This document shows positions 858 to 24,264 of a stretch of 64,000 nt of DNA, piece by piece. Within the stretch, counting starts at the first letter, position 1. Each line of letters opens with the position of its first letter. The notes beneath the pieces were generated by a model. It did no database searches and had not been told where the DNA came from. It saw nothing but the letters and a program-made list of their open reading frames with translations. Origin of the DNA: a virus (lineage: Duplodnaviria > Heunggongvirae > Uroviricota > Caudoviricetes); IMG/VR virus record IMGVR_UViG_3300011339_000564, positions 14,318 to 78,317 of that record, one strand, 5' to 3'. The position numbers were made by a program, and so were the translations under genes.

Positions 858-1661
858 ATGGATCATTATGTAACTTTAGGGGTAAACAAAAATGCTACCC
901 CGGACGATATTAAAAAAGCATATCGCAAACTGGCAAGTAAACATCATCCCGATAAAGGGGGCGATACCGCAACGTTTCAACAAATTGAAGAAGCATATCG
1001 TATTCTCAGTGATCCACAACAACGTCAACAATATGACAATCCAATGCCACAAGGCTTTGGGCAGAATTTTAATTTTAACGGTGGACCTGATATCTTCCAA
1101 GACTTTATGAGTCAGGTGTTTAGGCAACAACATCAGCAACATCAACACCGCCAGAGACAAAAACCAGTATTTAGAACCACAGTAACTGTAACACTTGAAC
1201 AGTCATACAAAGGTGAAGAGCAAGTTATCAGACTACAAACACCTACACTTACACATGCGGCAAATATTCAAACTCCGAAAGGGGTTCATAATGGTGACCA
1301 AGTTAAATTTGATAATATCATACAAGAGGCAAGTCTTATTGTAGAGTTTAAAATTATACCACATTTAAAATATGATAGAAATGGAAATGACTTGTTATCA
1401 AATCACCCGATATCAATATTAGATTTAATTACAGGGACATCGTTTGAGTTTACTACTATTTCAGGTAAAACATTTGAAGTTACAGTTAAACCTAAAACGC
1501 AACCATTTATACAATTAAAAATTACAGGACAAGGTATGCCCATACATGGAACCAATCAGTTTGGCGACCAAATAATCTTGTTAAAACCCTATATACCTGA
1601 TATAATTGACGAATCAATTATTAACAGCATTCTACAATCTAAAAATAAGGAATCAATATGA
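858..1661 (+). CDS. J-domain co-chaperone (DnaJ/CbpA-like, no zinc finger)
   Basis: J-domain with HPD motif ([15 protein letters not shown]...QQRQQYD) and a DnaJ C-terminal beta-sandwich region. There is no Cys-rich zinc finger. Confidence 0.9.
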
Positions 1662-3919
1662 CAAATTCTCCGGAAATAGAAAACATTATCGAACAATCGA
1701 TTGAGTATGCCAAACAACGTAAACATCAATATGTTACAGTTGAACACTTACTTCTTGCATTAATTAATCATCCATCTTTTACTAAATGCGTAGTTGGCTT
1801 TGGCATAGATGTTGAGTCAATGTCACACGAAATCACTGGTTATTTAGATAGCTTACACGCTATTGTTTATACTGAAACTGAAGTAGTTCCACGCAAAACA
1901 AGTAGTTTAGAACGGGTTATGAATCGTTCTGTCACTCAGGTTCTATTCACCGGACGTAGACAAGTTACTACTATTGATTTGTATCTAAGTATTGCAAGTG
2001 AAGGTAACAGTCACGCACATTATTTCATGCTCAAATACGGTATGCAAAAGAATGAGTTTGTTGCGTACTGGCAAAAACACTATAAGAATGAAGGCGCCGG
2101 CAATCTTACTGAAAATCAAGCAGATGAAATTCTTGAAGAATATACTATTAACCTAAGTGAACTTGCTAGTCAAGGTAAACTTGAACCATTGATTGGTCGT
2201 GCAAAAGAACTTGATGATATTATCAATGTGCTTGCTAAACGATTTAAATCAAATGTATTGATGGTGGGTGATCCGGGTGTAGGTAAAACTGCTATTGCCG
2301 AAGGTCTTGCACAAATGATGCACGACAAACAAGTGCCTGAATTTTTAGAAGGTCATCAACTATATTCATTAGAAGTTGGTTCATTACTTGCCGGCAGCAA
2401 ATATCGCGGGGACTTTGAAGAAAAAGTCAAAGCCATTATCGATGCATTGAATACTAAAAAGAAAGCTATTTTATTCATTGACGAAGCACATACTATGCAA
2501 GGTGCAGGTTCAAGCTCCAATGGTAGTGTTGACTTTGCTAATATGATTAAACCAGCAATTACTAAAGGCACATTGAAAGTTATTGCTAGTACTACTTGGG
2601 AAGAATACTACGAAAGTTTTGAGAAGGATCGTGCATTAATGCGTAGATTCTATCGTGTCTCAATTGATGAACCAAGCAACGAATCTACTGTTCGAATTCT
2701 TTCTGGACTAAGCACACGATTGAATGACTTTCATAGTGTTGAAATTCAAGAAGATGCAATTAAAGCATCAGTTGAAATGTCAACACGATACATTCACGAC
2801 CGAAAAAATCCTGATAAAAGTATTGACTTATTGGATGCGGCTTGTGCTAAACAACGTGTTGCAGGTAATAAAGGTGCACATATTACTAAAGACTTAGTGT
2901 TTGACCAAGTAGAGAAGTTTACGGGAGTTCCTGCAGATAAGATGAAGGGTGATAATTTTGACCTTATCAATAACCTTGAGATTAATATCAAAGGTAAATT
3001 ATATGGTCAAGATGAAACCGTTCAGCAAGTGTTAGAACGTATCTATGTTAACTTTGCTGGTATCGGTAATGATACTAAACCAACAGGTAGTTTCTTGTTT
3101 TTAGGCCCAACAGGTACAGGTAAAACAGAATTGGCTAAGTTGTTAAGTAAGAACCTTGACATGCCATTGCTCAAATATGATATGAGTGAATACGGAGAAA
3201 AACATTCAGTATCTAGTTTGATCGGTCCGCCCCCTGGTTATGTTGGCTTCGGTGACAGTCAAGTCGGTGGTGGCCGTTTAATCAACGACTTAAGTAAGAA
3301 CCCACATGCTATCATGTTGTTTGATGAAGTTGAAAAAGCACACCCTGATATATTTAACATCTTCTTACAGATGTTAGACGAAGGTACTATTACAGGAAGT
3401 AATGGTAAGAAGGTTAACTGTAAGAATGCTATTATCATTATGACTAGTAACTTAGGTAGTGCCGATGGTGAGCGCAATAACATTGGTTTTGGATCACAAG
3501 ACAAGCAAGGAGAAGATGATAAAGCATTGAAAGAATTCTTTAAGCCAGAATTCAGAAATCGTGTTGATTTGATTTGCAAGTTTAACAAACTTGATAGCTT
3601 GGCTATTAAGAAAATTGTTATTAAGTTTACTGAAGATTTGAAAAAATCATTAATTGAAAAACACAATATCAATTTAGTATTGACAGAACCAGTAGTTGAG
3701 TATCTAGCTGAACAAGGGTATGACAAGAAAATGGGTGCTAGACCACTAGCACGTAAGATTGACGAATTGATTCGTGTACCACTGAGTAAAAAAGTATTGT
3801 TTGAACGCATTAAAAATGCTACTATTACTGCCAACATTGTTGGTGACACTATTGATTTTGCAGTGACACACAAATTAACAGCTAAGGTGAATGACGATGG
3901 CATTATTGAGGTCAGTTGA
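1658..3919 (+). CDS. clpA: ClpA-like AAA+ unfoldase
   Basis: Clp N-domain and two AAA+ modules (Walker A GDPGVGKT and GPTGTGKT). 753 aa with no ClpB middle domain. [11 protein letters not shown] aligns with the ClpA IGL ClpP-docking loop. ATGA overlap with the upstream J-domain gene. Confidence 0.85.
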
Positions 3920-4633: not shown

Positions 4634-4642
4634 TGATAAATA
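4634..4642 (+). promoter_or_regulatory. TGATAAATA motif (candidate T4-late-type promoter element)
   Basis: Exact 9-mer in the intergenic region 25 nt upstream of the ATG at 4667. T4 late promoters have the consensus TATAAATA. Confidence 0.3.
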
Positions 4643-5203: not shown

Positions 5204-6487
5204 ATGAAACAAATTGTCATTATGCCGGGAGGCTTTCATCCATTTCATGCAGGGCACGCCGCACTATATCAAAGTGCAGTGAAAGCATTTCCGAGTGCAG
5301 AAGTATATGTTGCCGCTACCAATGACACAAAAACAAGACCTTTCCCCTTTAATATCAAAGAAAAACTAGCAAAACTTGCTGGCGTAGCTCCTGGACATTT
5401 TGTACAAGTTAAAAGTCCTTTTAAAGCAGAAGAAATCACAAGTCAATATAATCCAGAAGAAGATGTATTAATTTTTGTGCGTAGTGAAAAAGATAGAACA
5501 GAACAACCTAAACCAGGTGGCACAAAGAAAGATGGTACACCTGCTTACTTTCAACCATGGACCGGTAAGAATTTACAGCCATTCAGTAAACATGCTTACA
5601 TTGCTTACTTACCAACTGTAGAGTTTGGACCTGGAATTCAGAGTGCGACTGAGATTCGCAACATGTGGCCTAAACTAAACGATAAGCGCAAGACTGCATT
5701 GGTTATGAGTTTATATCCGATAACACAGACAAATCCTAAACTTGCCGCTAACGTTGTTAAGATGTTAGATATAGGCATGGGTGAACGACAAGGTGTGGCG
5801 GAGGATAAAGAATCCGATCCAGTCACAAGTGCTGTATTAAATTTCTATAAGCCAGTAATAAATGATATCCACAAAGAAAAACTACCAGACTATGTTGACC
5901 AAGCTCGTGGATTGTTACAGAAAACAAATGATCCTGATATTCGTAGTAAATTAGTTGATATCTTTAAAAAGGGTAAAGAAAATCCATATATTCAAGGTGG
6001 CATTGTTACTACCGTTGGTGCAGTATTAGCCGGTGGTATATTAACTACAGCACAGAAGATGGGACTAAGCCCTGCACAAACTAACTTAGCATTACAAGCA
6101 ATATTGAATACAGTTATTCCTACAGTTGTTTCACGTATCAATGGTAAAAACTGGAGTGATACAATTAAGTATACATTAGCAAGTGCAGGTATAGGTACAG
6201 GTATTGCCGGCGCAAGTTTAGTAGAAAACGATCCTTGGGGAGATCAAGGTAACTTTGCAGGTGATCGACACGTTGATATTGGTGGAATTTTTACTAGACC
6301 TAAATTAGGTGTAGGTGATATGGTTAAAGTAAATGCAGGTCATTTCAAAGGCATCGGAGAGATATCAGAAATTAAAGGTGACCGTGCAGAAGTTTGGATG
6401 GACAGCTATGCTAAATCCTTCATGTTTGATTTATCTGACCTAGTAAAGTATATACCCGAATCCATAGATTACTTAGAAGAAAAATAA
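5204..6487 (+). CDS. HxGH nucleotidyltransferase domain fused to a Gly/Ala-rich hydrophobic region and a KOW-like C-terminus
   Basis: N-terminal MPGGFHPFHAGH (cytidylyl/adenylyltransferase HxGH signature), a central QGVAED motif, hydrophobic G/A-rich segments, and C-terminal VGDMVKVNAGHFKGIGEISEIKGDRAEV. Confidence 0.6.
   Translation: MKQIVIMPGGFHPFHAGHAALYQSAVKAFPSAEVYVAATNDTKTRPFPFNIKEKLAKLAGVAPGHFVQVKSPFKAEEITSQYNPEEDVLIFVRSEKDRTEQPKPGGTKKDGTPAYFQPWTGKNLQPFSKHAYIAYLPTVEFGPGIQSATEIRNMWPKLNDKRKTALVMSLYPITQTNPKLAANVVKMLDIGMGERQGVAEDKESDPVTSAVLNFYKPVINDIHKEKLPDYVDQARGLLQKTNDPDIRSKLVDIFKKGKENPYIQGGIVTTVGAVLAGGILTTAQKMGLSPAQTNLALQAILNTVIPTVVSRINGKNWSDTIKYTLASAGIGTGIAGASLVENDPWGDQGNFAGDRHVDIGGIFTRPKLGVGDMVKVNAGHFKGIGEISEIKGDRAEVWMDSYAKSFMFDLSDLVKYIPESIDYLEEK
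5789..5805 (+). repeat. Copy of the dispersed GC-rich motif CAAGGTGTGGCGGA(G/A)G (encodes QGVAE)
   Basis: CAAGGTGTGGCGGAGGA; one of six copies in the window. Confidence 0.8.
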
Positions 6488-6538
6488 TTTGACCCCCTCG
6501 ATAGAGTGTAAATATCTTTATCTTAACAAGAGGACCAA

Positions 6539-7435
6539 ATGGCAACTAAGAAAACCAAAAAAACTGAAGAAAAAACTGTACCCGTAGAAAAGGTACAGGA
6601 AATCGCTGAACAAGCGGCACAAGAACAGCAACAAGCCCCGCAACAGGGTCAAGTTCAAGTTAATGTTGACTTTCTAAAAACTACCCGTGTGCACATTGCT
6701 ATGCCATGTTACGGTGGTATGTTGACAGAATCAACATTTATGTCATTCATCAAGTGGGCTAACACAGCCCGTCAACTTGGTATTGACTGGACATTAGAAA
6801 CAATGGTTAACGAATCATTGATTAGCCGAGCACGTAATACACTAACTGCAAAGTTCTTGGACATGCCAGACGCTACTCACTTGTTCTTTGTTGACGCTGA
6901 CATTGGCTGGGAACCCTGGCATCTATTAGTTCTATTGAACCGTGATGTTGATGTTATTGGTGGACTATATCCAATGAAGACTATGCCTATTAAATGGGTA
7001 GTTAATGGTTTTGAAGGTGCAGAAGAAGGCACTGATGGCCTACAGGAAGTATCTAAAGCAGGTACCGGTTTCTTACTAATGAAGAAGCATGTATTTGACA
7101 AATTGAAGTCTCATCCTGCAGTTAAGCAGTATAAGAACGACATTGGTTTAGATCCAAGATTTGACCAACACTTAAAGACTTACTTTGATACAGCAGTTCG
7201 TCAGAATCGTTACTACAGTGAAGACTGGACATTCTGTGAAAACTGGCGTGATATAGGTGGTAAGATTTGGGTTGACAAGCGTGTACTATTACGTCACAGC
7301 GGCTCATATGTTTTCTGCCAAGAGAACCAAGAACACTTGATGAAGACTATTGGACCCATGTACGTAGACCAATTGACTCAACAAGGTATTAAGCTAGTTG
7401 ACAAAGACGGCAACGAAGCTAAAATCAACAAATAA
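6539..7435 (+). CDS. GT-A fold (GT2-like) glycosyltransferase, putative
   Basis: IAMPCYGG..., SRARN, a FFVDADIGW DxD-like motif, and YSEDWTFCENW...HSG. Confidence 0.5.
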   Translation: MATKKTKKTEEKTVPVEKVQEIAEQAAQEQQQAPQQGQVQVNVDFLKTTRVHIAMPCYGGMLTESTFMSFIKWANTARQLGIDWTLETMVNESLISRARNTLTAKFLDMPDATHLFFVDADIGWEPWHLLVLLNRDVDVIGGLYPMKTMPIKWVVNGFEGAEEGTDGLQEVSKAGTGFLLMKKHVFDKLKSHPAVKQYKNDIGLDPRFDQHLKTYFDTAVRQNRYYSEDWTFCENWRDIGGKIWVDKRVLLRHSGSYVFCQENQEHLMKTIGPMYVDQLTQQGIKLVDKDGNEAKINK

Positions 7436-7438: not shown

Positions 7439-7466
7439 AAAGCCCCGAAAGGGGCTTTTGTTTGAT
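7439..7466 (+). terminator. Rho-independent terminator
   Basis: AAAGCCCC-GAAA-GGGGCTTT hairpin followed by TTTTGTTT, 4 nt after the stop at 7433-7435. Confidence 0.8.
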
Positions 7467-7471
7467 AAATA
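7463..7471 (+). promoter_or_regulatory. TGATAAATA motif (candidate late promoter element)
   Basis: Exact 9-mer just upstream of the ATG at 7476. Confidence 0.3.
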
Positions 7472-8792: not shown

Positions 8793-8841
8793 TGGTAAAA
8801 AATTCTCTTTTGACTAAATATAAGTATCAAGGGAATTTTCT

Positions 8842-9130: not shown

Positions 9131-9139
9131 TGATAAATA
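9131..9139 (+). promoter_or_regulatory. TGATAAATA motif (candidate late promoter element)
   Basis: Exact 9-mer 23 nt upstream of the ATG at 9163, flanked by two GGAATTCC palindromes (9105-9112 and 9152-9159). Confidence 0.3.
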
Positions 9140-9162
9140 CTATATAATATTGGAATTCCATC

Positions 9163-9942
9163 ATGCGTTTTACAGAAATATCAGAATCTACAACATCAGG
9201 CTCAGTATCTACTGTAGCAATGCCACTAGGCAAAACTCAAACACGTACTCAAGTATCTGGTTTAGAACCCGTGAAAAAAGTAATGGGCGGCACTGCTAAG
9301 AAAAAAGGTCCATATGGAAATAGTCTTACTGAAGGTGCTATGAAGCAACTTTCAATGGATCTTAAAGAGTTAAAAGACGAAGAATTCAAAAAGAAATATA
9401 ATATGACTAAGCAGGAAGCCCGTACTGAATTATCTGCAAAGCCTGAACCCATCAAAGAAGCAGAACTATCTGAAGATGATATCATATTAGTTCCAGGACA
9501 GGGACGCAAAATGAAAACTGGATTTGTACCGCATGGTCAAAGTCGTGTAGACCATGAAGTAGAAATGGCACGTAGTGATTTATTCAGTGCGGCAAAGAAC
9601 GCTAAACAAGTATATGAAATGATTCATAGTGTATCTGAAGATGAGGGTCTTGAGGGCTGGGTACAAGAAAAGATTATCAAAGCCAACGACTACCTAAATA
9701 CAGTACGTGAATACTTAGAAGGTAAACAAATTCAACAAGAAGCTAGTAGTCTTACATATGAAGGTAAGATTGACTTTGCCAAAAAGATACAAAAGAATGT
9801 AGATAAGAGTAACAAAGCAGTAGTAAAGACTAGAAAAGAAGTTGGTGCAAGAATTGCTGATATTGGTGCAGGCGGCAAAGAACACAATGTTAAAACTGAC
9901 AAAGCGTGGGACGATGCACAAAAAGCAAAGAAAGCAAAATAA
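9163..9942 (+). CDS. Hypothetical protein with a CTS-like N-terminus (candidate capsid-internal protein)
   Basis: N-terminus MRFTEISES. Charged and low in complexity. 259 aa. Confidence 0.55.
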   Translation: MRFTEISESTTSGSVSTVAMPLGKTQTRTQVSGLEPVKKVMGGTAKKKGPYGNSLTEGAMKQLSMDLKELKDEEFKKKYNMTKQEARTELSAKPEPIKEAELSEDDIILVPGQGRKMKTGFVPHGQSRVDHEVEMARSDLFSAAKNAKQVYEMIHSVSEDEGLEGWVQEKIIKANDYLNTVREYLEGKQIQQEASSLTYEGKIDFAKKIQKNVDKSNKAVVKTRKEVGARIADIGAGGKEHNVKTDKAWDDAQKAKKAK

Positions 9943-9943
9943 A

Positions 9944-12900
9944 ATGAGCAATATTCTACAAGGCTTAAACGAAACACAAAAACATGACGGTGTATTCTTG
10001 TTAACAGAATCTCGTACATACAAGTTATGGGAGAGTGCTGGACAAAAGATTAGTGAAGCACAACTAACTGCCGATCAGATTAATCAAATCTTTAAACAAG
10101 TTGAACAAGGTGCTACTGCCGCAGGTGGTAATCGTACAATGCTCGGTAAAGGTAAAGACGCAGCCGGCGCAGTAAAGCAAGCATATGATGATTTGGTGAG
10201 TAAAGCACAGAACTCAGGACCTATTAAAGGTGTTGATGCGATGTACGACAAAGCCGCCGAAAAATTAAAACAAGCAACTGGTGGCGATCAGGGTGTAATG
10301 AAATATGTACAGAAATATCGTGACTTTGCTAAAGAACACCCAGTAGCACAAGGTTTAATATATTCAGCATTAATTGCAGCCGCTGGTATCAGTGGTGCAG
10401 GTATTGGTGGTGCAGCCGCACTAGGTTTGTTTAAGATGGTAGACAAATTGTTACAGGGTGAGAAGTTTAGTACTGCTGTAGGTAAAGGCGTAACTACTGG
10501 TGCAATGGCTTATGGTGCAAGTAAAGTTGGTGATCTTTTCAAAGGTTCACCGCAAGGCGCACCTACTACTGCTGGATCAGACGCTACCGCAGGTGCGGCA
10601 CAAGATACATTGTCTGCGACTAGACAAGCAGTGGAAAAAGAAGCTATGGATGCCATTAAGTCTAGAATTGCCAATGGAGAAATAGCACCCGGCGATCAAG
10701 GTGCCATACGATATTTGGCATACAAAATGCTAGCTGGATCATGTATGCCGCCGCCGTCTATAGAAACTTCTGTAGAAAAATTAATAACACGATCTATGGG
10801 TGATGTAGGAACTAGCGCAACTAATACAGTGTCCGGCACATTGTCAGGTGTTACCGGAGAACAGATGGCTAGTCATCCTGCATACCAAGCAATGATTCAA
10901 AAGTTTGGCAATACACCCGGCGCTCGTCAGGCGGCTATGGCTGCTGCCAAGTCAGCAATTCTTAAGGGACAAGTCAATGAAAGTATCAATTTATCAGAAT
11001 CTCAAATCTTTCTATTGATAGGTAAGATTGTTGAACGTCAACGTAAACTTGACGAAGGCATCATGGATACACTTAAAGGCGCCGCAGGTAAAGCCGCCGA
11101 TTGGGCACAAACTAAAGGAACTAATTTAACAACTAAAGTTACTGCTGACAAATTATTACAAGCGTGGAAGAAAGCTGGTAGTCCAACAGATAGTTTAGAT
11201 GTTGCAAGCATTATTCAAAAAGCTGGTGTACCATCTGATTCAATCAAACAAGTATACACTACAATGCAAATACCTTTTGCAGGTGAAAAAGGTGCAGGTG
11301 CGAGTACAAAACGTAATATAGATGTTGATCCATCAAGTGTTGCACCAGCCGCTCCAACAAGTACACCCACTGCTTCTGCACCGTCAGCTACAGCAAATGC
11401 GCCGGCGGCAGATGCATCACAGCCTGCTACGGCCGCAACTGGCTCTTTAGCACAAGCACAAGAACTCATTGCAAAATTAGATCCAGAAACTAAAACAAAA
11501 CTTATATCAACATTGAAACAAGAGTTGAGTGTAGCTGAAAGTCGAATCAATGAATTATCTAATGAAAAATTAGGACAATACAAAAAAGCCGCAAGTGCTG
11601 ACGCTACTGCCGCTGACAAAGCAGGTGACTATAAGCGTGGTGATAAACGTTTCAGTGGTATTGTTCGTGCAACTAACAAACAGTTTGCTAATGATACTAA
11701 AAAACATGGTCAGCAAGGTGTGGCGGAAGGCTTAGAGCAATCATTATCGTCAATGGTAAGACAAGATCAGACTGAGCGGAATGAGTATGCAACCTTTGTA
11801 AAATCACAAGCAGGTGGTGATTGGTCCAAAGGGGCTAAAATGTATGCTCAACTCAAAAAAAGACCCATCGATGATATATTTGGTGATGCAATAAGATTAA
11901 ACCAGTTTATGAAAATGAAGTTTGATTTTGATAAATTTACCAATGAAGATTGGGACAATTATTGGTTGTTAGCACAGCATTGTGATAATAATCGTGACTT
12001 TCAAAAGAATGCTTTATCAATAATTAAAAAATATCAAGGTACAGATCATTCGCACTACAAATATCTATACGATAGAATCAGTATGGGTCTAACTGGTAAA
12101 CAGAAATACGGAACACAGAATATTAAAGAGCAAGGCGTGGCAGAAGGCTTCCCTCATGATGTTGACCATATGCCGGGTCCTGTGATTCGCAATGCTGATA
12201 TGACTACAGATAATGTCAAGACCAAAGACAAAGCAGAATGGGACAGAGCCACTGATAGCATCAACGCACGGGTGTTTGATGATATGAGTGAATTTCGCAC
12301 TGACAACAACGGTGAAACAGTTGTCGGTGATAGCGCAGTTTGGGCCAAGTGGGACAATGCTACACAAACAGGTTGGTTCAATGCCAAAGGTCGCCCATTA
12401 AAGCCTTGGCCTGTTAAAGAGCAAGGTGTGGCGGAAGGTGATGGGCCAAGATATATTGATAACATAATGAACCAGTATAAGGCAGGCTTGCCTGGCCAAA
12501 ACCCGGCGGCCTTATCTAAACCAACTAGAGCAGTTGATGCCAGAGGTCGCACACAAGAACAATGGGCACAATTAGTTAGGAGCAAGTTTCCGGGTGCTAA
12601 AATTACACAGGCTAAAATGATTGACGGGCCTATGCAAGCAACCTTACCTGATGGTAGAAAACTTGGATGGAAAAAAGTTGAACAAATTGATGAAATTATT
12701 GATCCTAGCACAAAGATGGCATGGGCATTACGCCACATCGCCGGGTTCCTTACTAGATTATTTCCTTACGCAGTGGGCGCCGGAACTTTGTGGGCAGCCA
12801 GTGGACTGTTGGCCCCACTAGTGGCTGCATCCGGTGGAGTGGCCGCGGCAATTTCTGCATTAGGCGGTTCAATGGGATCAGCTACAGGCGCGGCTGCAGG

Positions 12901-13795
12901 AGCAGTTGGCGGTGCCAGTATAATGCAAATTATTAAAAACTTATTTGCCGCAGACGAGAATAGTATACAAGCAGGAATTAAAAAGTGGGTAGAAAGACAA
13001 GTAGGTGACGAAGCCGATGTACAAGAATTTTTACTAACTCATGCCAAAGCCGCATATGACGGTAAACCTGGTTTCCGTTGGAGGGCTAAAGAGTGGCCTG
13101 TTAAATTAAGTAAAGATCAAGCAGAAGCATATTTAGAAAAGAAAGATAAATCTTGGCTTGATTATGAAAAGCAAAAAATAATCGATGCTGAAAAAGCGAA
13201 GGCTGAAAAAGATAAAGAAGGTATGATGGAAGAACAACTTGATGAACTAAATTGCTGGTCAGGTTACCATAGAGTTGCCGGCACTAAAGCAGGCTTTCCA
13301 GGTAGTTGTGCTAAAAATAAAACAAATGAATCAGAACATAAATGCCCACATTGCGGTGGCGAGATGGTTAGTGAAGAACTAATGAATGAAAAGAAAGATG
13401 CTTGCTACTATAAAGTAAAGAGCCGTTATAAAGTATGGCCAAGTGCTTATGCTAGTGGTGCGTTAGTTAAGTGCCGTAAGAGTGGTGCTGATAGCTGGGG
13501 CAACGGTGGAAAGAAGAATGAAGGTTCTATACTAGAAGGTATTAACCGAGCAGACGAAAGTTTGCATGATTGGTTTAATAAAGAAAAGTGGGTTCGCATG
13601 GATACTAAAGGAAAGATTAAAGGTCCGTGTGCTAGAGAACCAGGAGAAGGTAAACCTAAATGTTTACCTCAAGCAAAGGCACATAGTTTAGGCAAAAAAG
13701 GTCGTGCAAGCGCGGCTGCTAGAAAACGCAGAGAAGATCCCAATCCAGAACGTAGTGGTAAAGCCATCAATGTTAATACTAAAAAGAAAGACTAA
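9944..13795 (+). CDS. Giant modular protein (1283 aa), candidate virion-internal or ejection polyprotein
   Basis: Start set at the ATG at 9944, 1 nt after the upstream stop (the track start at 9842 overlaps the upstream gene). It has three QGVAEG motifs, an EGMMEEQLDELN motif, G/A-rich hydrophobic segments, an Ala/Pro/Thr low-complexity linker, and a Cys-rich basic C-terminus (CPHCGG...). Confidence 0.7.
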   Translation: MSNILQGLNETQKHDGVFLLTESRTYKLWESAGQKISEAQLTADQINQIFKQVEQGATAAGGNRTMLGKGKDAAGAVKQAYDDLVSKAQNSGPIKGVDAMYDKAAEKLKQATGGDQGVMKYVQKYRDFAKEHPVAQGLIYSALIAAAGISGAGIGGAAALGLFKMVDKLLQGEKFSTAVGKGVTTGAMAYGASKVGDLFKGSPQGAPTTAGSDATAGAAQDTLSATRQAVEKEAMDAIKSRIANGEIAPGDQGAIRYLAYKMLAGSCMPPPSIETSVEKLITRSMGDVGTSATNTVSGTLSGVTGEQMASHPAYQAMIQKFGNTPGARQAAMAAAKSAILKGQVNESINLSESQIFLLIGKIVERQRKLDEGIMDTLKGAAGKAADWAQTKGTNLTTKVTADKLLQAWKKAGSPTDSLDVASIIQKAGVPSDSIKQVYTTMQIPFAGEKGAGASTKRNIDVDPSSVAPAAPTSTPTASAPSATANAPAADASQPATAATGSLAQAQELIAKLDPETKTKLISTLKQELSVAESRINELSNEKLGQYKKAASADATAADKAGDYKRGDKRFSGIVRATNKQFANDTKKHGQQGVAEGLEQSLSSMVRQDQTERNEYATFVKSQAGGDWSKGAKMYAQLKKRPIDDIFGDAIRLNQFMKMKFDFDKFTNEDWDNYWLLAQHCDNNRDFQKNALSIIKKYQGTDHSHYKYLYDRISMGLTGKQKYGTQNIKEQGVAEGFPHDVDHMPGPVIRNADMTTDNVKTKDKAEWDRATDSINARVFDDMSEFRTDNNGETVVGDSAVWAKWDNATQTGWFNAKGRPLKPWPVKEQGVAEGDGPRYIDNIMNQYKAGLPGQNPAALSKPTRAVDARGRTQEQWAQLVRSKFPGAKITQAKMIDGPMQATLPDGRKLGWKKVEQIDEIIDPSTKMAWALRHIAGFLTRLFPYAVGAGTLWAASGLLAPLVAASGGVAAAISALGGSMGSATGAAAGAVGGASIMQIIKNLFAADENSIQAGIKKWVERQVGDEADVQEFLLTHAKAAYDGKPGFRWRAKEWPVKLSKDQAEAYLEKKDKSWLDYEKQKIIDAEKAKAEKDKEGMMEEQLDELNCWSGYHRVAGTKAGFPGSCAKNKTNESEHKCPHCGGEMVSEELMNEKKDACYYKVKSRYKVWPSAYASGALVKCRKSGADSWGNGGKKNEGSILEGINRADESLHDWFNKEKWVRMDTKGKIKGPCAREPGEGKPKCLPQAKAHSLGKKGRASAAARKRREDPNPERSGKAINVNTKKKD
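11714..11731 (+). repeat. Copy of the dispersed motif CAAGGTGTGGCGGAAGGC (QGVAEG)
   Basis: Contains the exact 16-mer core AAGGTGTGGCGGAAGG. Confidence 0.85.
12131..12148 (+). repeat. Copy of the dispersed motif (CAAGGCGTGGCAGAAGGC, QGVAEG)
   Basis: Two synonymous mismatches to the core. Shares the extended TTAAAGAGCAAGG context with the copy at 12422. Confidence 0.8.
12422..12439 (+). repeat. Copy of the dispersed motif CAAGGTGTGGCGGAAGGT (QGVAEG)
   Basis: Contains the exact 16-mer core. Confidence 0.85.
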
Positions 13796-13804: not shown

Positions 13805-14245
13805 ATGTTATCAGATAATCTAAAAGTACTTTTAGCTAGTACACAAAGTTTTGCTATTAAAACACAAAACTTTCATTGGAATGTTGAGGGGAGTAATTTT
13901 CCACAGTATCATGCATTTTTTGATACGTTATACGGTGATGTAAGTGCTACTATCGATCCTATCGCTGAATATATCAGAATATTAGGTGCTTACACACCCG
14001 GCAGTTTACAACGTTATGCTGAACTAAGTATCATTCAAGACCAAATCAAAATCCCACGTGCTCAACTAATGTTTGCTGAATCACTACAAGATTGTGAAAA
14101 AATGAGTGAATTAGTCGTTGCTATGTTTGACGAAGCAACAAACGAACGTCAGCAAGGCATTGCTAATTACATGGCTGAACTACAAGACCTATACGGTAAG
14201 AAAGCATGGTTCATTCGTTCTACATTGAAAACAGAACGTGAGTAA
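13805..14245 (+). CDS. dps: Dps-family ferritin-like DNA-protection protein
   Basis: KTQNFHWNVEGSNFPQYHAFFDTLY...IDPIAEYIRILG matches the Dps signature (fHWnv.G..F...H..f...y...D.iAEri..lG). Confidence 0.8.
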   Translation: MLSDNLKVLLASTQSFAIKTQNFHWNVEGSNFPQYHAFFDTLYGDVSATIDPIAEYIRILGAYTPGSLQRYAELSIIQDQIKIPRAQLMFAESLQDCEKMSELVVAMFDEATNERQQGIANYMAELQDLYGKKAWFIRSTLKTERE

Positions 14246-15515
14246 ATTAGAATTTACCCAGAAAGAATGGGAAAAGATAGAAAATAACGGGACTTATTGT
14301 CCCGGTTTATTTAACAGCAAATACATAGAAACTGACGGTGGACTGAGAGCATGTTGTGTTCAAGATTTAAAAGGTGAACATTATACAAATACAGAATCCT
14401 ATAACACCACTTCGTTAAAACAAGCCAGACAAAATTCATTATCAGGGATTAAAGATTCCAGTTGCGCTAGATGTTGGGAAAATGAATCATTAAACACCAG
14501 ATCATATAGACAAGGTCTAGTAGAGTCTGCTATTCACTGGAAAAGTAAAATCAAAGATAATATAAATGTTGACTATTCCATCACAGAACCCACCATAGAC
14601 TACTTAGACATTAGATTTGATAATATCTGTAATTTAAGATGTAGATATTGCAGTACTATTTTTAGTTCTAGTTGGAGACACGAAACTGAGTTACTAGAAA
14701 AAGAATTACCAATATTTAAATATATAAAAAGAAGATCAGTAGATACAAAAATATTGAATAGTGTAACCGATATTGACACGATATTAGCTGACCTTAGAAC
14801 AGTTAAAAAAATATTTTTTGCGGGTGGCGAGCCATTAGTAAACGATAAACATTATGAAGTGTTAGAATATCTAATAGATAATAATAGAACCAACATTGAA
14901 ATAACGTATAATACTAATTTTACAAACATTAAAAAAGTTATTCCTTATTGGAAAAAGTTTTCAAACATACACGTGGGTGCAAGTTTAGATGCAAATTATA
15001 AAAGAGGAGAATACATTCGTAAAAATCTCGTATGGGACCAGATTGTAGAAAATAGAAAATTAATGATTGCCGAAGTTCCTCATGTTCAATTTGAAATAAA
15101 TGCGTCAATGAGTATATTGAATGCGTATAATGTAGTAGATTTTCATAAAGAATGGATTAATGATAAATTAATTGGACCTTTTGATTTAACTGCATGGAAT
15201 TTTGTATCTAAACCTGAACATTATGATATTAGGAATTTACCTGACCATCATAAGATTAAATTAAAAGAAATATATCAAACTCATATTGATTGGTTAAACT
15301 CCCTCACATCAGGCAATGATATTAAGTTTAAAAGTAAAAATGATTCTAGTTTTGCTATTCAATCATATCAAGGTATAATTAATAGGTTAAATTTAAGTAG
15401 AAATTCATCTTTTGACAAATTTTGGGAATTTGACAAATGGTTAGATAATAATAGAGATGAAAACTTTTTTGATGTGTTTCCTGAGTATGAGGACTTTGCT
15501 AGATATTTTAGCTAA
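14238..15515 (+). CDS. Radical SAM enzyme with an N-terminal Cys-rich (SPASM/twitch-like) segment
   Basis: CNLRCRYC is a CxxxCxxC motif. An N-terminal YCPGLFNSKYIETDGGLRACC...SCARCW resembles a SPASM-type auxiliary cluster motif. GTG start overlapping the dps stop. Confidence 0.7.
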   Translation: MSKLEFTQKEWEKIENNGTYCPGLFNSKYIETDGGLRACCVQDLKGEHYTNTESYNTTSLKQARQNSLSGIKDSSCARCWENESLNTRSYRQGLVESAIHWKSKIKDNINVDYSITEPTIDYLDIRFDNICNLRCRYCSTIFSSSWRHETELLEKELPIFKYIKRRSVDTKILNSVTDIDTILADLRTVKKIFFAGGEPLVNDKHYEVLEYLIDNNRTNIEITYNTNFTNIKKVIPYWKKFSNIHVGASLDANYKRGEYIRKNLVWDQIVENRKLMIAEVPHVQFEINASMSILNAYNVVDFHKEWINDKLIGPFDLTAWNFVSKPEHYDIRNLPDHHKIKLKEIYQTHIDWLNSLTSGNDIKFKSKNDSSFAIQSYQGIINRLNLSRNSSFDKFWEFDKWLDNNRDENFFDVFPEYEDFARYFS

Positions 15516-15544
15516 ATATTATTATAAGAACAATAGAGAGTAAC

Positions 15545-16707: not shown

Positions 16708-16787
16708 AGTAATTTTTTCTATATTTTGTAAATTTTTATGCCAAATGGAATAAATATATGTTCATCATATTTATTATCGGAGGACAG

Positions 16788-19712: not shown

Positions 19713-19721
19713 TGATAAATA
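19713..19721 (+). promoter_or_regulatory. TGATAAATA motif (candidate late promoter element)
   Basis: Exact 9-mer 20 nt upstream of the ATG at 19742. Confidence 0.3.
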
Positions 19722-19741: not shown

Positions 19742-19981
19742 ATGAAAGAACATATCTACACATCATCCAAAGGAGAGAGTTTTTTATCATGGGATGATTG
19801 GGCACTCCAAACACTAAACGAAAGTGATTTGAGTGTTTATCTTAGCCCCCAAGTAGAAGGTTCAACATTATCTGCTGATAAATTGGCTTTATATGCACGT
19901 TGGGTAGACGAAGAACAAATATTAACACACGTTGTTAAAGAAGATGATGTTATAATACAACAATCAAATGCACTCAAGTAA
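19742..19981 (+). CDS. Hypothetical protein
   Basis: ORF MKEHIYTSSKGESF... The alternative ATG at 19712 lies inside the TGATAAATA motif, so the downstream start is preferred. Confidence 0.5.
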   Translation: MKEHIYTSSKGESFLSWDDWALQTLNESDLSVYLSPQVEGSTLSADKLALYARWVDEEQILTHVVKEDDVIIQQSNALK

Positions 19982-20540
19982 TTTTATTACAGAATCTGCC
20001 GTAGATGAGTTAGCAAAAAAACTACCCTCATTGACTAAACACGACTATGATACCATTGATACATTAATGAGAAGTATTGCCAGTAGACATAGCATGAGTG
20101 GTAATGCATTACATGATTTGTTTGTAAAAAAATATAAAAGAACACCCGATAACTGGATTAAACATAAATTAGACGAAGGTGATGATTCAGATTTGCAACA
20201 AGAAGTTGATAAATTCTGCGATTGGGCATGTAAACGATTGCATATAAAATCTAAACCTGAAATTGAACTCAGTATGGATACTGAAGAAGCACAAAATAAT
20301 CATCATACAGGTGGTCATCAAATGGGCGCTGATAGTATTTGGGTATATGTAAATAATCGTAACCTAGTTGATATACTACGCACAGTATTTCATGAATTGG
20401 TTCATGTGCGCCAAGGTGAATTAGATATGATTAAGCCGGGTGATAGTTACCCAGGTAGCCCAATTGAAGCAATGGCAGATATGCTTGCGGGCAAATACAT
20501 CAAAATTTATGGTGAACAGAACCATCATATCTTTCAATAA
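19968..20540 (+). CDS. HExxH metallopeptidase-like protein with a CTS-like N-terminus
   Basis: The FHELVHVRQ HExxH motif and the N-terminus MHSSNFITES (compare MRAKEFITEG at 41773). Confidence 0.5.
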   Translation: MHSSNFITESAVDELAKKLPSLTKHDYDTIDTLMRSIASRHSMSGNALHDLFVKKYKRTPDNWIKHKLDEGDDSDLQQEVDKFCDWACKRLHIKSKPEIELSMDTEEAQNNHHTGGHQMGADSIWVYVNNRNLVDILRTVFHELVHVRQGELDMIKPGDSYPGSPIEAMADMLAGKYIKIYGEQNHHIFQ

Positions 20541-20560
20541 TTGATTATTTGTGCTATAAT
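20532..20560 (+). promoter_or_regulatory. Extended -10 promoter (TGcTATAAT); leaderless transcript predicted
   Basis: TGCTATAAT at 20552-20560, a weak -35 TTTCAA at 20532-20537, and the ATG at 20567 six nt after the -10. Confidence 0.45.
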
Positions 20561-20566
20561 GCACAG

Positions 20567-21163
20567 ATGATTAAGATTACAGTTCCATTACCCAAACAAA
20601 TTACTGTTGCATGTAGCGGCGGTGTTGATAGTATGGCTGTAGTTGACTTTCTAAGTCGCAAACACGATGTAACTATTGCCCATTTTAATCATAGAACACA
20701 AAACGGTGAACGTGCCGCCCAATTTGTTTCTGGGTATTGTGGTGATAATAATATTCCTATGCTATACGGATCACCTCGCAGTGAACGCGGAACAAAAGAA
20801 TCAATGGAAGAATATTGGCGCAGAGAACGATATGAATTCCTAAGCGAATTAGGACCGGTCATCACTTGTCATCATCTGGATGACTGTGTTGAGACATATG
20901 TTTGGTCTAGTTTACATGGTACAGCCAAAGTTATCCCACTCACTCGCAAAAATGTATTGCGCCCATTTTTAACTACACGTAAGAGTGAATTTGTTCGATG
21001 GTGTGAACAACATAAAGTTCCTTGGATTGAGGACGAATCAAACAAAGATACCAAATACACAAGAAATTACATTCGCAACGAAATGATGCCACATATATTG
21101 AAAGTCAATCCGGGCATTCATACTTTGGTCAAGAAGATTGTAGAAGGTAAGCAAAATACTTGA
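20567..21163 (+). CDS. tilS: TilS-like PP-loop ATPase, catalytic domain only
   Basis: ACSGGVDSMAVV PP-loop, HFNH, RRERYEF, CHHLDDCVETYVW, LRPFL, WIEDESN..TKYTRNYIRNEMMP. Together these match the N-terminal domain of tRNA(Ile)-lysidine synthase. At 198 aa it lacks the C-terminal tRNA-binding domains. Confidence 0.7.
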   Translation: MIKITVPLPKQITVACSGGVDSMAVVDFLSRKHDVTIAHFNHRTQNGERAAQFVSGYCGDNNIPMLYGSPRSERGTKESMEEYWRRERYEFLSELGPVITCHHLDDCVETYVWSSLHGTAKVIPLTRKNVLRPFLTTRKSEFVRWCEQHKVPWIEDESNKDTKYTRNYIRNEMMPHILKVNPGIHTLVKKIVEGKQNT

Positions 21164-21211: not shown

Positions 21212-21478
21212 ATGTCAGATTATAACAGAACCTTTAACGGTGAGGCAAAAATTAAACTAACTCAACTAGTAAATGAGGGCATGACAGTCCTACATGAGAT
21301 TGATACATTGAATGGTGGATTGAATGACACTATTAAAGCAGTCGCAGAAGAACTTGAAATCAAGGCTTCTACTTTGAAGAAAGCAATTAAAATTGCTCAC
21401 AAAGCAAGTCTCGGTCAGACTAACAAAGACCACGATGAACTCAACACTATCTTGGAAACTGTGGGCAAAACACTTTGA
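21212..21478 (+). CDS. Hypothetical protein
   Basis: 88-aa ORF with a strong AAGGAG RBS, immediately upstream of the polymerase gene. Confidence 0.6.
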   Translation: MSDYNRTFNGEAKIKLTQLVNEGMTVLHEIDTLNGGLNDTIKAVAEELEIKASTLKKAIKIAHKASLGQTNKDHDELNTILETVGKTL

Positions 21479-24183
21479 GTTACGTTGACGCTATTCATAG
21501 TAGGGATGAAGACCGTATCTACGTGGTAGAACGTGATAAGAATGGCGTACGCCAGTATAAAGAATATCCTACTAACTATGTGTTGTATTACCCTGACCAC
21601 AAGGGTAAACATCGTAGTATCTATGGCAATCCAGTTAGTCGTTTCAGTACACGCAAACGCACCGAGTTTGAAAAAGAAAAGCGCATCCACTCAGGTAAAA
21701 CATTGTTTGAATCTGATATCAATGTAGTCTTTCGTTGTCTAAGCGAAAACTATCTTAAAGTTGATGCACCTAACCTTCATACTTGCTTCTTTGACATTGA
21801 AGTGGACTTTGATCCAGTCAAAGGATTCAGTCCTACAAGTGATCCATTCAATCCCGTAACTGCTATCAGTTGTTACTTAGATTGGCTTGACCAATGTATT
21901 ACATTAGTTATTGCTCCTAAGCACATGACCACTGAGACTGCGTGGGAAATAGTTAGAGAGTTTCCTAATTGTTTTCTTTGCAATAACGAAAAGGAAATGT
22001 TTGATACATTCTTTGAATTAATTGAAGATGCTGATGTATTAACTGGCTGGAACTCAGAAGGATACGATATTCCATATATGGTCAATCGTGTTACTAGAGT
22101 AATGAGTAAAGATGATACACGCAAGTTTTGCTTGATGGGTCAGCTTCCTAAACCTCGTGAGTACGAACGATTTGGTAAGAAAGAAATGACTTACGATTTA
22201 GTCGGTAGAATTCACCTTGACTATTTACAACTTTACAAAAAGTATAACTATGAATCTCGACATTCATATAAGTTAGATGCTATCGGTGAGATGGAAGTTG
22301 GTGAAAACAAAACACAATATGAAGGTACTCTTGACCAGTTGTATAACAAAGACTTTAAAAAGTTCATTGAATACAATAGGCAAGATACAATGTTGTTGGT
22401 GAAGATTCACAACAAACTTAAGTTTTTAGAATTAGCTAATCAACTTGCACACGAAAATACAGTACTGCTTCCAACAGTAATGGGTTCAGTGGCAATGATT
22501 GAGATGGCAATTTTTAATGAGGCCCACGAACGTGGGTTAGTTGTCCCAGATAAAAAACGAAAGGTTGAAAATGCAGAAGAAATCCAGCAGGCAGCAGGTG
22601 CCTATGTTGCTACGCCCAAAAGAGGTATGCACGAATGGGTCGGCGCCGTCGACATTAACTCGCTCTATCCCTCGGTTATTCGTGCCGTCAACATGGGAGG
22701 AGAAACGATTGTCGCACAAGTCAGACAAACATTAACCGATCACTACATAAAAGAAAAGGGTCGTAATCTTGCTGAAGGAAAGAAATATTTCAAAGAAGGT
22801 GATGAAGATGTGACTGGTGCTATATTATGGGAGAACTTGTTCGGCTCATTAGAATATACTGCTATTATGAACCAAGAGCGTGGCACAATGCTTACTGTAG
22901 ATTACGAAGATGGTCGTAGTGAAGAAATGAGTGCGGCAGAAGTATGGAAGATGATTTTTGATAGTCACAAACCCTGGATGCTCTCTGCAAACGGAACAAT
23001 CTTCACATATGAAAAAGAAGGTGTTGTTCCTGGTCTACTCACACGCTGGTATACAGAACGTAAAGTAATTCAAAAACAAGCAAAAGAAGCATATGGCACA
23101 GATATGTATGATTATTACGACAAGCGACAACTAGTTCGTAAGATTTTATTGAACTCCGCGTATGGTGCATTGTTGAACGAACATTGTCGTTTCTATGATA
23201 AGCGCATTGGTCAAAGTGTTACATTGAGTGGGCGTCAAATCGTGCGACACATGATGAGTACAATCAATGAATCAGTAACTGGTGATTATAATCACGAAGG
23301 TCCTGCAATTGTTTATGGTGATACTGACTCATGTTATTTCACAGCATATCCTATTCTTAAACAGCAAATTGAGAGTGGCGAACTAACTTGGGATAAAGAA
23401 ACTTGTATCGGATTGTATGATGGCATCGCTGACCAAGCTAATGAATCGTTCCCTGCATTTATGGAACGTGCATTTCATGCACCTCGCAAGAATGGTGAGA
23501 TTATTAAAGCTGGTCGTGAACTGATCGGTGATCGTAGTATCTTTATCACTAAGAAACGTTATGCTATTAACATCTTTGACAAAGAGGGCAAGCGTAAAGA
23601 TAAAGACGGTGCTCTTGGTGATATCAAAGCTATGGGTCTTGACTTGAAACGTGCTGATACACCTAAGTATGTACAAGAATTCTTAATGGATGTGCTTGAG
23701 ATGGTTCTTCAACGAGGTAAAAATCGTGAGGATGTAATTGAACGTGTTAAGGAATTTAAACGTGTTATGGTAGCACAGGACAGCTGGACTAAAGGTTCTC
23801 CTAAATCAGTTAATAATTTAACTAAGCATACACAAATATTTGACAAAACAGGTAAGTGTGGTGTTGGTCACGCACGTGCCGCAATCAATTGGAACTATCT
23901 ACGCAGAATGAATGGGGACAACTACAGTCAACAAATTGTTGATGGTATGAAAATTATTGTATGTAAACTTAAATCTAACCCATTAGGCTTTAATAGTATT
24001 GCTTATCCGGTTGATGAATTACGATTGCCTACATGGTTCAAAGAATTACCATTTGACGATAGTGCAATGGAATCAACATTGGTTGATGAAAAGATTGACA
24101 ACTTGCTTGGTGTTCTTAATTGGGACATTAAGAGTAACATTGATGTTAAATCTACGTTTGATGACTTATTCAGTTTCGGTTAA
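21475..24183 (+). CDS. Family B DNA polymerase (T4 gp43-like)
   Basis: Exo I FFDIEVD. Pol motif A DINSLYPSVI, motif B KILLNSAYGAL, motif C YGDTDS. TTG start overlapping the upstream stop. Confidence 0.95.
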   Translation: MSYVDAIHSRDEDRIYVVERDKNGVRQYKEYPTNYVLYYPDHKGKHRSIYGNPVSRFSTRKRTEFEKEKRIHSGKTLFESDINVVFRCLSENYLKVDAPNLHTCFFDIEVDFDPVKGFSPTSDPFNPVTAISCYLDWLDQCITLVIAPKHMTTETAWEIVREFPNCFLCNNEKEMFDTFFELIEDADVLTGWNSEGYDIPYMVNRVTRVMSKDDTRKFCLMGQLPKPREYERFGKKEMTYDLVGRIHLDYLQLYKKYNYESRHSYKLDAIGEMEVGENKTQYEGTLDQLYNKDFKKFIEYNRQDTMLLVKIHNKLKFLELANQLAHENTVLLPTVMGSVAMIEMAIFNEAHERGLVVPDKKRKVENAEEIQQAAGAYVATPKRGMHEWVGAVDINSLYPSVIRAVNMGGETIVAQVRQTLTDHYIKEKGRNLAEGKKYFKEGDEDVTGAILWENLFGSLEYTAIMNQERGTMLTVDYEDGRSEEMSAAEVWKMIFDSHKPWMLSANGTIFTYEKEGVVPGLLTRWYTERKVIQKQAKEAYGTDMYDYYDKRQLVRKILLNSAYGALLNEHCRFYDKRIGQSVTLSGRQIVRHMMSTINESVTGDYNHEGPAIVYGDTDSCYFTAYPILKQQIESGELTWDKETCIGLYDGIADQANESFPAFMERAFHAPRKNGEIIKAGRELIGDRSIFITKKRYAINIFDKEGKRKDKDGALGDIKAMGLDLKRADTPKYVQEFLMDVLEMVLQRGKNREDVIERVKEFKRVMVAQDSWTKGSPKSVNNLTKHTQIFDKTGKCGVGHARAAINWNYLRRMNGDNYSQQIVDGMKIIVCKLKSNPLGFNSIAYPVDELRLPTWFKELPFDDSAMESTLVDEKIDNLLGVLNWDIKSNIDVKSTFDDLFSFG

Positions 24184-24191: not shown

Positions 24192-24220
24192 TTGACATTT
24201 GCAATAAATGCCATTATAAT
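24192..24220 (+). promoter_or_regulatory. sigma70-type promoter TTGACA-17-TATAAT
   Basis: TTGACA at 24192-24197 and TATAAT at 24215-24220, upstream of the ATG at 24265. Confidence 0.6.
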
Positions 24221-24264
24221 ACACAACATAACTACCTAAATAGTACTATACATAAAGGAAAAAC

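Follow-up and report, generated by a model that had tools for sequence, protein, structure and literature searches.

The window analysed here is a 64,000-nt stretch of DNA, positions 14,318 to 78,317 of IMG/VR virus record IMGVR_UViG_3300011339_000564 (Caudoviricetes). It has a GC content of 37% and about 4% of it is intergenic. The window also corresponds to positions 295-64294 of a 77-kb JGI metagenome contig, 3300011337 Ga0153702_1008. The source is an uncultured giant (jumbo) freshwater phage, allied by its genes to Atu_ph07 and the RaK2-like phages. A short motif, TGATAAATA, recurs in front of genes of the window. The motif is a real, orientation-specific promoter-like signal consisting of a -10 element only. 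It is probably this phage's version of the T4-type (gp55) late promoter, with the core [A/C]TAAATA.

In the mechanism proposed, the motif would act as a -10-region promoter with no -35 element. It would be read by the host RNA polymerase core carrying a phage sigma factor of the gp55 family, and the sliding clamp would probably assist. Host sigma-70 would read the perfect TTGACA-N17-TATAAT promoters of the early genes. Transcription from the motif would most likely start at a conserved A located five (to six) nt downstream. Two classes of site are distinguished. In the long class the motif lies 16-26 nt from the ATG with a Shine-Dalgarno (SD) sequence between them, as in T4. In the short class it lies 4-7 nt from the ATG with no SD sequence; transcripts of this class are predicted to begin with the A of the AUG and would be leaderless.

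Placement, conservation and sequence of the motif

A sequence-only reading of the window had reported five exact copies of TGATAAATA, all in short intergenic regions. The five copies were confirmed at 4634-4642, 7463-7471, 9131-9139 and 19713-19721 on the plus strand and at 45700-45708 on the minus strand, and all five are intergenic. The total, however, is six. The additional copy, at 52284-52292 (+), falls within the final 14 nt of a gene and is separated by 4 nt from the ATG that follows. Two related sites that had been listed, TATAAATA at 55486-55493 (+) and GATAAATA at 33076-33083 (+), were found as described. A second copy of TATAAATA at 44394 is antisense, within a minus-strand gene.

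The number of copies is only mildly unusual and the non-randomness of the motif rests on its placement. Six copies compare with 2.25 expected, a ratio of about 2.7, and 2 of 100 shuffles also reached six. These figures are what favours chance clustering, with an A/T-rich word recurring in intergenic DNA that is itself A/T-rich. All six copies face the downstream gene and lie 4-55 nt before its start codon. The sense-strand zone reaching up to 70 nt before start codons makes up 5.5% of strand-positions. It held 6/6 copies of TGATAAATA (binomial p=2.8e-8, top of 83,362 9-mers), 7/7 copies of GATAAATA (p=1.6e-9, top 8-mer of the window) and 13/20 copies of ATAAATA (p=2.4e-12, top 7-mer of the window). 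For TAAATA the fraction in this zone was 19%, the highest among 15 hexamers of the same composition, the others ranging from 2 to 12.5%. The runners-up, ATATAA and ATAAAT, overlap sigma-70 -10 boxes or the motif itself. Across 52 non-redundant related loci TAAATA again ranked first among these hexamers, with 93 of 339 copies in the zone, which there makes up 1.9% of positions.

The second-ranked 9-mer in the scan for upstream enrichment was AACATTTCGGAG. A set of paralogous small open reading frames (ORFs), at 49886-50292, at 59038-59549 and ending at about 60564, have C-termini of the form ...EHFGV(E/G)..., and AACATTTCGGAG recurs just upstream of the next start codon because of these C-termini.

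The sequence-only reading had cautioned that an A/T-rich 9-mer is not rare in this genome. The reverse was found. Over the whole window TATAAATA occurred twice compared to 8 expected, and ATAAATA occurred 20 times compared to 31.7 expected. It had also suggested asking whether the motif is equally frequent in coding sequence. This check was run and coding copies were depleted, so the promoter idea was not refuted. Coding expectations were taken from 300 synonymous-codon shuffles of every gene. On the sense strand of coding sequence TAAATA occurred 11 times compared to 26.8 ± 4.0 expected, and none of the 300 shuffles was as low. On the antisense strand it occurred 27 times compared to 40.0 ± 4.8 expected, and about 1% of shuffles were as low. 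Sense ATAAATA was absent from about 59 kb of coding sequence. Such a depletion of stray copies on both strands would be expected of a DNA-level signal such as a promoter.

Chance clustering was regarded as already refuted. The placement p values of 1e-8 to 1e-12 are the best of all k-mers, and the share of TAAATA in the upstream zone, 19-27% in the window and the related loci, compares with 1-6% for control hexamers of the same composition. Coding sequence avoids the motif relative to synonymous-codon shuffles, and its position is conserved across divergent orthologous loci.

This conservation was seen at several sites in IMG/VR relatives. Among about 50 distinct orthologs of gene 7476 (46-95% amino-acid identity), [A/C]TAAATA stands 4 nt before the ATG in most loci with an intergenic spacer, with an occasional spacing of 7-8 nt. 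The sequence further upstream varies between loci, being a GC-rich terminator hairpin in some and a different spacer or the end of a further gene in others. The core is preceded by two variable bases (TG, AG, CG, TC, AA), and some loci have CTAAATA. In orthologs of gene 9163 the block tTGATAAATActaYat and its spacing of about 23 nt before the ATG are retained, and the sequence preceding the block is divergent. At many loci orthologous to 19742/19968, [T/A]GATAAATA precedes a small ORF by about 20 nt, an SD sequence is present and the contexts vary. The minus-strand site at 45700 is also kept in orthologous loci, but it is less informative because the entire divergent spacer is conserved as well. 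The single ortholog found for gene 55499 has GTAAATA, 4 nt and ATG behind a different upstream gene. Just beyond the window TGATAAATA also occurs before a gene starting MRA.

A flank profile was made from 194 distinct sites in the window and related loci. TAAATA upstream of a gene was required of every related site collected, so its constancy in the profile is a selection criterion. The base preceding TAAATA was A or C. One base earlier G was present in 44-59% of sites, and before that T in about 40%. Downstream, C and T came just after the core and A occupied the fifth base in 61-67%. For the exact copies of TGATAAATA in the window this fifth base was A in 6/6. No -35 element was conserved in the related sites, positions -17 to -4 relative to the core being unconserved. 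On this comparison the leading TG is a preference of the clade only. The sites proposed for the 9-mer were real, but the functional core is [A/C]TAAATA rather than the full 9-mer, so the list of sites is longer than first given.

The TG bears on a different reading of the same sites. They could be extended -10 promoters, composed of TG and a hexamer, that are read by the unmodified host sigma-70 holoenzyme and are constitutive or early. All six exact copies open with TG directly before an A/T-rich hexamer, and canonical sigma-70 promoters are clearly used in the phage. This was nevertheless considered very unlikely. In sigma-70 promoters the T at -7 is the most conserved base and the A at -11 is essential. 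The register TG-n-hexamer gives TAAATA, with A where sigma-70 needs T at -7. In the alternative register, ATAAAT, the required A at -11 is missing and no base is left as a spacer behind the TG. In related sites the TG is conserved in only about 40-60%, and the CTAAATA variants do not have it. The phage's own sigma-70 promoters are near-perfect and entirely unlike the motif.

Most candidate late-promoter sites of the window have long spacings. The copy of TGATAAATA at 4634 is 24 nt before ATG 4667, with an SD-like TGGAG between them and A as the fifth nt downstream of the motif. The copy at 9131 is 23 nt before ATG 9163, the start of a 259-aa gene which is followed by a giant gene. The copy at 19713 is 20 nt before ATG 19742 and has the SD sequence AAGGA. 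An ATAAATA at 31048-31054 (+) is 16 nt before ATG 31071 with AAGGAG between them. Another, at 16750-16756 (+), precedes a TctC-like gene and is 31 nt from the probable start, ATG 16788, which has AGGAGG. The GATAAATA at 33076 is 61 nt before the folE ATG at 33145 and is a weaker candidate given this long spacing. Variants of the core were also recorded as candidates on the plus strand. These were GTAAATA at 6508-6514, 24 nt before ATG 6539, and CTAAATA at 8814-8820 (21 nt before ATG 8842), 15512-15518 (26 nt before ATG 15545) and 60974-60980 (16 nt before ATG 60997). A further CTAAATA, at 48866, is within the spacer of a sigma-70 promoter and may be coincidental.

The minus-strand copy at 45700 is 55 nt before ATG 45644, the first gene of the operon 45644-41300. 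An ORF called on the plus strand overlaps the site. From its translation this ORF starts later, probably at ATG 45721, and the family match to its protein begins about 22 residues in. The site is taken as intergenic because the plus-strand ORF begins later. The resulting divergent spacer, 45645-45720 (76 bp), also contains a sigma-70-like promoter at 45663-45691 (+), TTGACT-17-TACACT, directed toward an endonuclease gene. The late-type motif faces left, toward the operon, whose proteins have N-termini like a capsid-targeting sequence (CTS). The two elements are no more than 10 bp apart and are conserved together in relatives.

Sites adjoining the start codon

The short class is represented in the window before ATG 7476, ATG 52297, ATG 55499 and, on the minus strand, ATG 53818. 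The spacers are 4, 4, 5 and 6 nt, respectively, and no SD sequence is present. The first two are the copies of TGATAAATA at 7463 and 52284. The latter overlaps the 3' end of ORF 51836-52297 at a TAATG junction. ATG 52297 thus overlaps the upstream stop codon, and translational coupling would be an alternative there. The TATAAATA at 55486 follows a stem-loop and precedes ATG 55499, the probable true start of a 207-aa ORF. The minus-strand site is an ATAAATA at 53825-53831, before gene 53330-53818. The pattern TAAATA-N(0-9)-ATG occurs 13 times in the window and opens real ORFs in five cases. One of the five is the 16748 site, for which a leaderless start was rejected, the downstream ATG 16788 with its AGGAGG SD sequence being the likelier start. 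Beyond the window a further example is found at L271 14061, and many more are present in IMG/VR loci.

A strong intrinsic terminator, AAAGCCCCGAAAGGGGCTTT followed by a T-run, is located at 7439-7458 (+) and ends 4 nt before the motif at 7463. A promoter is needed at 7463 because the motif is the only conserved element between this terminator and the start codon. A -35 box has no room there because the terminator hairpin fills its place. A sigma-70-like sequence at 7398-7425 (11/12) was rejected as functional, as it lies inside a gene and immediately before the terminator.

Sites of this kind could also suggest an element that acts at the level of RNA or protein binding and not as a promoter, such as a translational enhancer rich in A/U, a site of RNA processing or an operator bound by a DNA-binding regulator. 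The short-spacing motif occupies the place of the ribosome-binding site, the 9-mer holds the in-frame stops TGA and TAA, and a weakly DsbA-like DNA-binding protein is encoded at 21212-21478. Such an element is highly improbable. Some promoter must follow the terminator before gene 7476, as noted above. The long class has a normal SD sequence between motif and ATG, so that the motif is unneeded there as a ribosome-binding site. The antisense depletion within genes points to a DNA-level signal. The motif is not palindromic, unlike typical operators.

The first codons of the gene 7476 orthologs vary in a codon-like manner (AAT/GAC/AAC, then TTA/CTA/ATT). ATG 7476 was taken as the start codon because the orthologs vary codon-like from this ATG on. 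Spacing is bimodal in related loci. In the loci bearing a sigma gene, 16 sites with a spacing of exactly 5 nt form a sharp peak, and a second, broad group spans 15-26 nt. These loci were picked independently of the window genes; some are close relatives of one sigma gene, and orthologous sites may be shared among them. Loci related to gene 19968 show short spacings of 4-7 nt.

The short spacings can be related to a start site in two ways. If the box ends at -6, as in T4, position +1 coincides with the A of the ATG when the spacer is 5 nt. If transcription starts at the conserved A five bases after the motif, the same holds for a spacer of 4 nt. We infer that genes of the short class would be expressed from leaderless or nearly leaderless mRNAs. 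Many proteins of this start-codon-fused subclass have T4-like capsid-targeting leaders, MR(A/Y)TEF. It is tentatively proposed that, across a large and abundant clade of uncultured freshwater jumbo phages, some gp55-type late promoters form a subclass joined directly to the start codon ([A/C]TAAATA, 4-6 nt, ATG), from which a defined set of late proteins would be made on leaderless mRNAs; this is possible but somewhat doubtful. If true, the late switch would gain a level of control in translation, which would be new for the expression of phage late genes. The start-codon-abutting subclass is the only non-routine element of the system, and it is worth following up together with its link to CTS-like leaders.

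Downstream genes, transcription machinery and source phage

The sequence-only reading had stated that all five copies precede genes with CTS-like leaders or QGVAEG motifs. This was true of part of the set. Leaders of the pattern M-R/N-x-x-E-I/L/F follow the sites at 7463 (MNLKELDSF), 9131 (MRFTEISES) and 45700 (MRITEILTEA), but the first genes after 4634 and 19713, and after the sixth site at 52284, are without these motifs. The three N-termini resemble the capsid-targeting sequence of T4. The pattern recurs in the rest of the minus-strand operon, with the N-termini MNFKELFEG, MRDLIQLLED, MRANEFAVDE and VRAKEFITEG, the last with a GTG start. In relatives many genes preceded by the motif start MRATEF, MRYTEF or MRSTDL. 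The association of the motif with CTS-like leaders is real but partial, and the relatives strengthen it.

The giant protein (9887-13795) contains three copies of QGVAEG or EGVAEG, and ORFs 43174-44955 and 44952-45644 contain one each. The three repeats of the giant protein are possibly protease sites. Virion membership was not confirmed by Pfam or PHROGs, in which the downstream genes matched DUF6321, GP88, DUF-type or unknown families alone. A tblastn search against phages gave one cyanophage homolog labelled 'structural protein', the others being hypothetical proteins, unrelated enzymes or unannotated records. The giant protein, 19968-20540 and 44952-45644 (-) gave overlapping matches to PHROGs of unknown function (phrog_727, 3477 and 10346). 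The matches lie in the basic C-terminal part of the giant protein and in 44952-45644, where Pfam finds DUF6321; in 19968-20540 only an N-terminal stretch is matched. By tblastn the domain of 44952-45644 is widespread in cyanomyoviruses and pelagiphages.

Sigma70-type promoters had been reported before the other genes, and this held. Eight perfect (12/12) TTGACA-N17-TATAAT sites were found, all on the plus strand. They are located at 445-473, heading an operon that includes the DnaJ and ClpA-like genes, at 24192-24220, before the clamp gene described below, and at 47192-47220, 48856-48884, 55110-55138, 57452-57480, 57789-57817 and 58112-58140. Seven are in or overlap an intergenic spacer, and the one at 58112 is at the called start of ORF 58112-58378. 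Eight perfect sites in 64 kb, at or near gene starts, make an unusually idealised set of early promoters. An 11/12 site with TG lies before queD at 35084-35112 (+). Two more 11/12 sites are at 46651 and 56119 (+), the former shortly upstream of ATG 46734 and still within the 3' end of a gene.

The two promoter types differ in distribution. Sigma-70 sites are concentrated in a block of small ORFs at 45-60 kb, and late-type sites at 4.6-20 kb and before the minus-strand operon. The clean early/late partition suggested previously is broadly right, but late-type sites at 52284, 53825 (-), 55486 and 60974 lie in the sigma-70-rich block. The clamp gene carries both types. Its perfect sigma-70 promoter is followed just downstream by a CTAAATA at 24236-24242 (+), 22 nt before ATG 24265, a possible dual early/late arrangement.

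A sigma factor of the gp55 family was sought in relatives as well as in the window. More than 3000 metagenomic homologs were found for the Atu_ph07 gene that carries the annotation 'sigma factor for late transcription'. In a profile comparison the Atu_ph07-type sigma profile matched residues 21-116 of T4 gp55 with 95.7% probability. Full-length gp55-like homologs are found in PA5oct-like, RaK2-like and 121Q-like phages, and the family is present in many contigs of the same sample series. The proteins of this family are about 285 aa in length compared to 185 aa in T4. PHROGs scans of the window ORFs, with small ORFs concatenated, gave no gp55. Among the best 80 of more than 580 matches in each of two IMG/VR scans, no gp55-like gene was on a contig assignable to the clade. 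By analogy with these relatives the source phage would encode a gp55-like sigma factor, and the genes driven by the motif would be expressed late. The cytidylyltransferase-like gene 5204-6487 (+) has homologs placed divergently beside the gp55-like sigma gene in Atu_ph07 (gp695) and in several IMG/VR contigs (L235, L229 and L175); in the window it is not adjacent to a sigma gene.

The ORF at 24265-24993 (+), just after the DNA polymerase gene, is predicted to encode a sliding clamp of the two-domain PCNA/gp45 type. The predicted fold had a mean local confidence (pLDDT) of 73.7 and a predicted template-modelling score (pTM) of 0.74, and Foldseek matched it to PCNA-type clamps with a probability of 1.0 and TM-scores of 0.6-0.69. 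The clamp was identified solely by this fold search. By BLASTP the ORF showed no similarity to T4 gp45, and searching the PDB by sequence gave no match. The ORF belongs to phrog_12062, which is labelled 'unknown function' and has about 3800 metagenomic members. In T4 the gp45 clamp is the mobile enhancer of late transcription. The modelled fold therefore suggests that the component acting as the T4 mobile enhancer is present. A gp45/PCNA-type clamp appears to have been overlooked by earlier sequence searches in related phages and yet to be present.

The only small regulator-like ORF, an 88-aa ORF at 21212-21478 (+) just upstream of the DNA polymerase gene, is weakly similar to T4 DsbA and is not gp33-like. 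It falls in phrog_639, labelled 'transcriptional regulator'. Its Pfam match to Phage_DsbA, the T4 double-stranded-DNA-binding protein family, had E=0.048, below the cutoff.

Several observations weigh against a gp55-type late promoter in this phage. A hidden Markov model built from 18 gp55-like proteins found no gp55-like ORF (E<=10) in the window and a further 8.6 kb of its contig, 72.6 kb in all or about 20% of a genome of about 350 kb. It also found none in about 1 Mb of related loci. No gp33-like co-activator was detected among the window ORFs in PHROGs and Pfam scans. The downstream genes include some that are not obviously virion genes, namely a cytidylyltransferase-like enzyme in the operon after 4634, folE and the TctC-like protein. 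In a few related loci just 2 nt separate the motif from the ATG, which is incompatible with a leaderless start at T4 geometry. The base at -13 is G here and T in T4, with T preferred here at -14.

Some of these points would also fit a different phage-directed system, such as one based on another phage sigma factor, on an activator of the middle class or on an RNA polymerase of the phage. The likeness to T4 would then be convergent and the class maybe not late. The failure to find a gp55-like gene in the 72.6 kb and the metabolic rather than structural nature of some downstream genes favour it. CBB-type phages, moreover, have a second phage sigma factor, of the sigma-70 family, and a third promoter class (PMC5259590). 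A different system was nevertheless judged unlikely. The core, the missing -35 element and the distances to SD sequence and ATG are all as in T4. All cultured relatives have a gp55-like sigma factor. In 80 IMG/VR loci selected solely for the presence of a gp55-like sigma gene, TAAATA again showed the strongest enrichment of any hexamer before genes. No phage RNA polymerase gene was seen in PHROGs and domain scans of the window ORFs. A T4-type late promoter remains the probable identity of the motif.

The lineage of the source phage was assessed from conserved genes. The family-B DNA polymerase (21475-24183) and a ClpA-like ATPase (1658-3919) have 37-49% identity to their counterparts in Sinorhizobium phage Phosso, Agrobacterium phage Atu_ph07, the RaK2/K64-1 group, the 121Q-like group and PA5oct-like jumbo phages. 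Both proteins are nearest to Phosso, Atu_ph07 and RaK2-like phages. A megablast search of 16 kb of the window against cultured phages gave zero matches, and the phage is considered to have no annotated close relative because this search was empty. Orthologs were found on hundreds of IMG/VR contigs with 46-97% amino-acid identity, and the window therefore appears to come from an abundant uncultured clade. The clade has almost no functional annotation, and the motif would give a simple, testable rule by which transcription units, and genes that are probably late or virion-internal, could be recognised.

Among the other genes of the window are those for a DNA ligase and a DnaJ-like protein, as well as numerous small ORFs of unassigned function. 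A scattered 7-deazaguanine set was noted, consisting of folE, queD, queE, a PP-loop ATPase and an additional radical-SAM gene. On inspection a 517-aa ORF contains the motif DSGGFQ, which we take to be reminiscent of tRNA-guanine transglycosylase or DpdA. The 7-deazaguanine-related genes and the DSGGFQ ORF are located at 14238-15515, 20549-21163, 25382-26935, 33145-33825, 35130-35612 and 37664-38512. The gene set suggests modified DNA.

A phage-borne proteostasis and translation set was also present. It includes a DnaJ-like protein, a ClpA/B-like ATPase, ClpX, ClpS, HSP20 and ribosomal protein S21, and is located at 858-3919 in the window and, beyond it, at L271 17365-19713. It is conceivable that S21 is relevant to the translation of late mRNAs without an SD sequence, as a tie to ribosome remodelling.

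Comparison with known promoter systems

The lambda cI gene, transcribed from PRM, is known to have a leaderless mRNA and a promoter -10 element that abuts the AUG. The short class resembles it in having a -10-type element a few bp before an ATG that has no SD sequence, with the AUG predicted at or next to +1. It differs in being a recurrent class tied to a phage-specific type of promoter. A literature search for leaderless T4-like late promoters gave nothing relevant. A search for the literal string GATAAATA gave irrelevant primer matches only.

The T4 late promoters are read by the RNA polymerase core with gp55, gp33 and the gp45 sliding clamp. The sites of the window share with them the core ATAAATA, the lack of a -35 element and, in the long class, the layout of SD sequence and ATG. 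Like T4 late promoters they precede candidate virion-internal genes, and a clamp of predicted PCNA/gp45 fold is encoded beside the DNA polymerase. In 50 kb of T4 late genes [N]ATAAATA was found 12-28 nt from the annotated ATG, always with an SD sequence between them, compared to 16-26 nt in the long class here. No site with a spacing of 4-7 nt was seen in those 50 kb, in contrast to the window. The T4 promoter, TATAAATA, spans -13 to -6 (PMC1524935). The conserved A here suggests a start at the fifth downstream nt, compared to the sixth in T4.

In other T4-like phages (RB49, KVP40 and cyanophage S-PM2) the T at -13 is poorly conserved, and Aeh1 uses CTAAATA (PMC1524935). The sites described here agree with these in the relaxed first base and in allowing C at -12. 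The promoters of those phages accompany diverged gp55 proteins, as the present sites would. Those phages are Straboviridae of 160-250 kb, whereas the window belongs to an uncultured clade of jumbo phages.

Another close comparison is with the RaK2-like jumbo phages vB_PcaM_CBB (CBB) and GAP32. Late promoters of the form ATAAATA/CTAAATA have been predicted in them at 35 sites before structural genes, together with a gp55-like sigma factor (PMC5259590). No gp45 homolog was found in CBB by its authors and gp33 was not detectable (PMC5259590). Judged by its DNA polymerase and ClpA-like protein, and by the gp55-like sigma family of its relatives, the source phage falls in the same broad lineage as CBB and GAP32. 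The core of 7 bp is identical, including the C variant, and sigma-70-like early promoters coexist with it. Like the sites here, those of CBB are bioinformatic predictions. In the sequence printed after the motif for 19 of the 35 sites of Table S7, no ATG is found within 7 nt, unlike the short class. The clamp is detectable by fold here, and the TG prefix is specific to the present clade. For PA5oct, the omics paper describes TATAATA/TTGAC promoters only and reports no late motif.

T4-type late promoters are to be expected in a T4-related jumbo phage and have already been predicted in relatives. The present sites would extend T4-style late promoters, with G at -13, to jumbo phages far from the Straboviridae.

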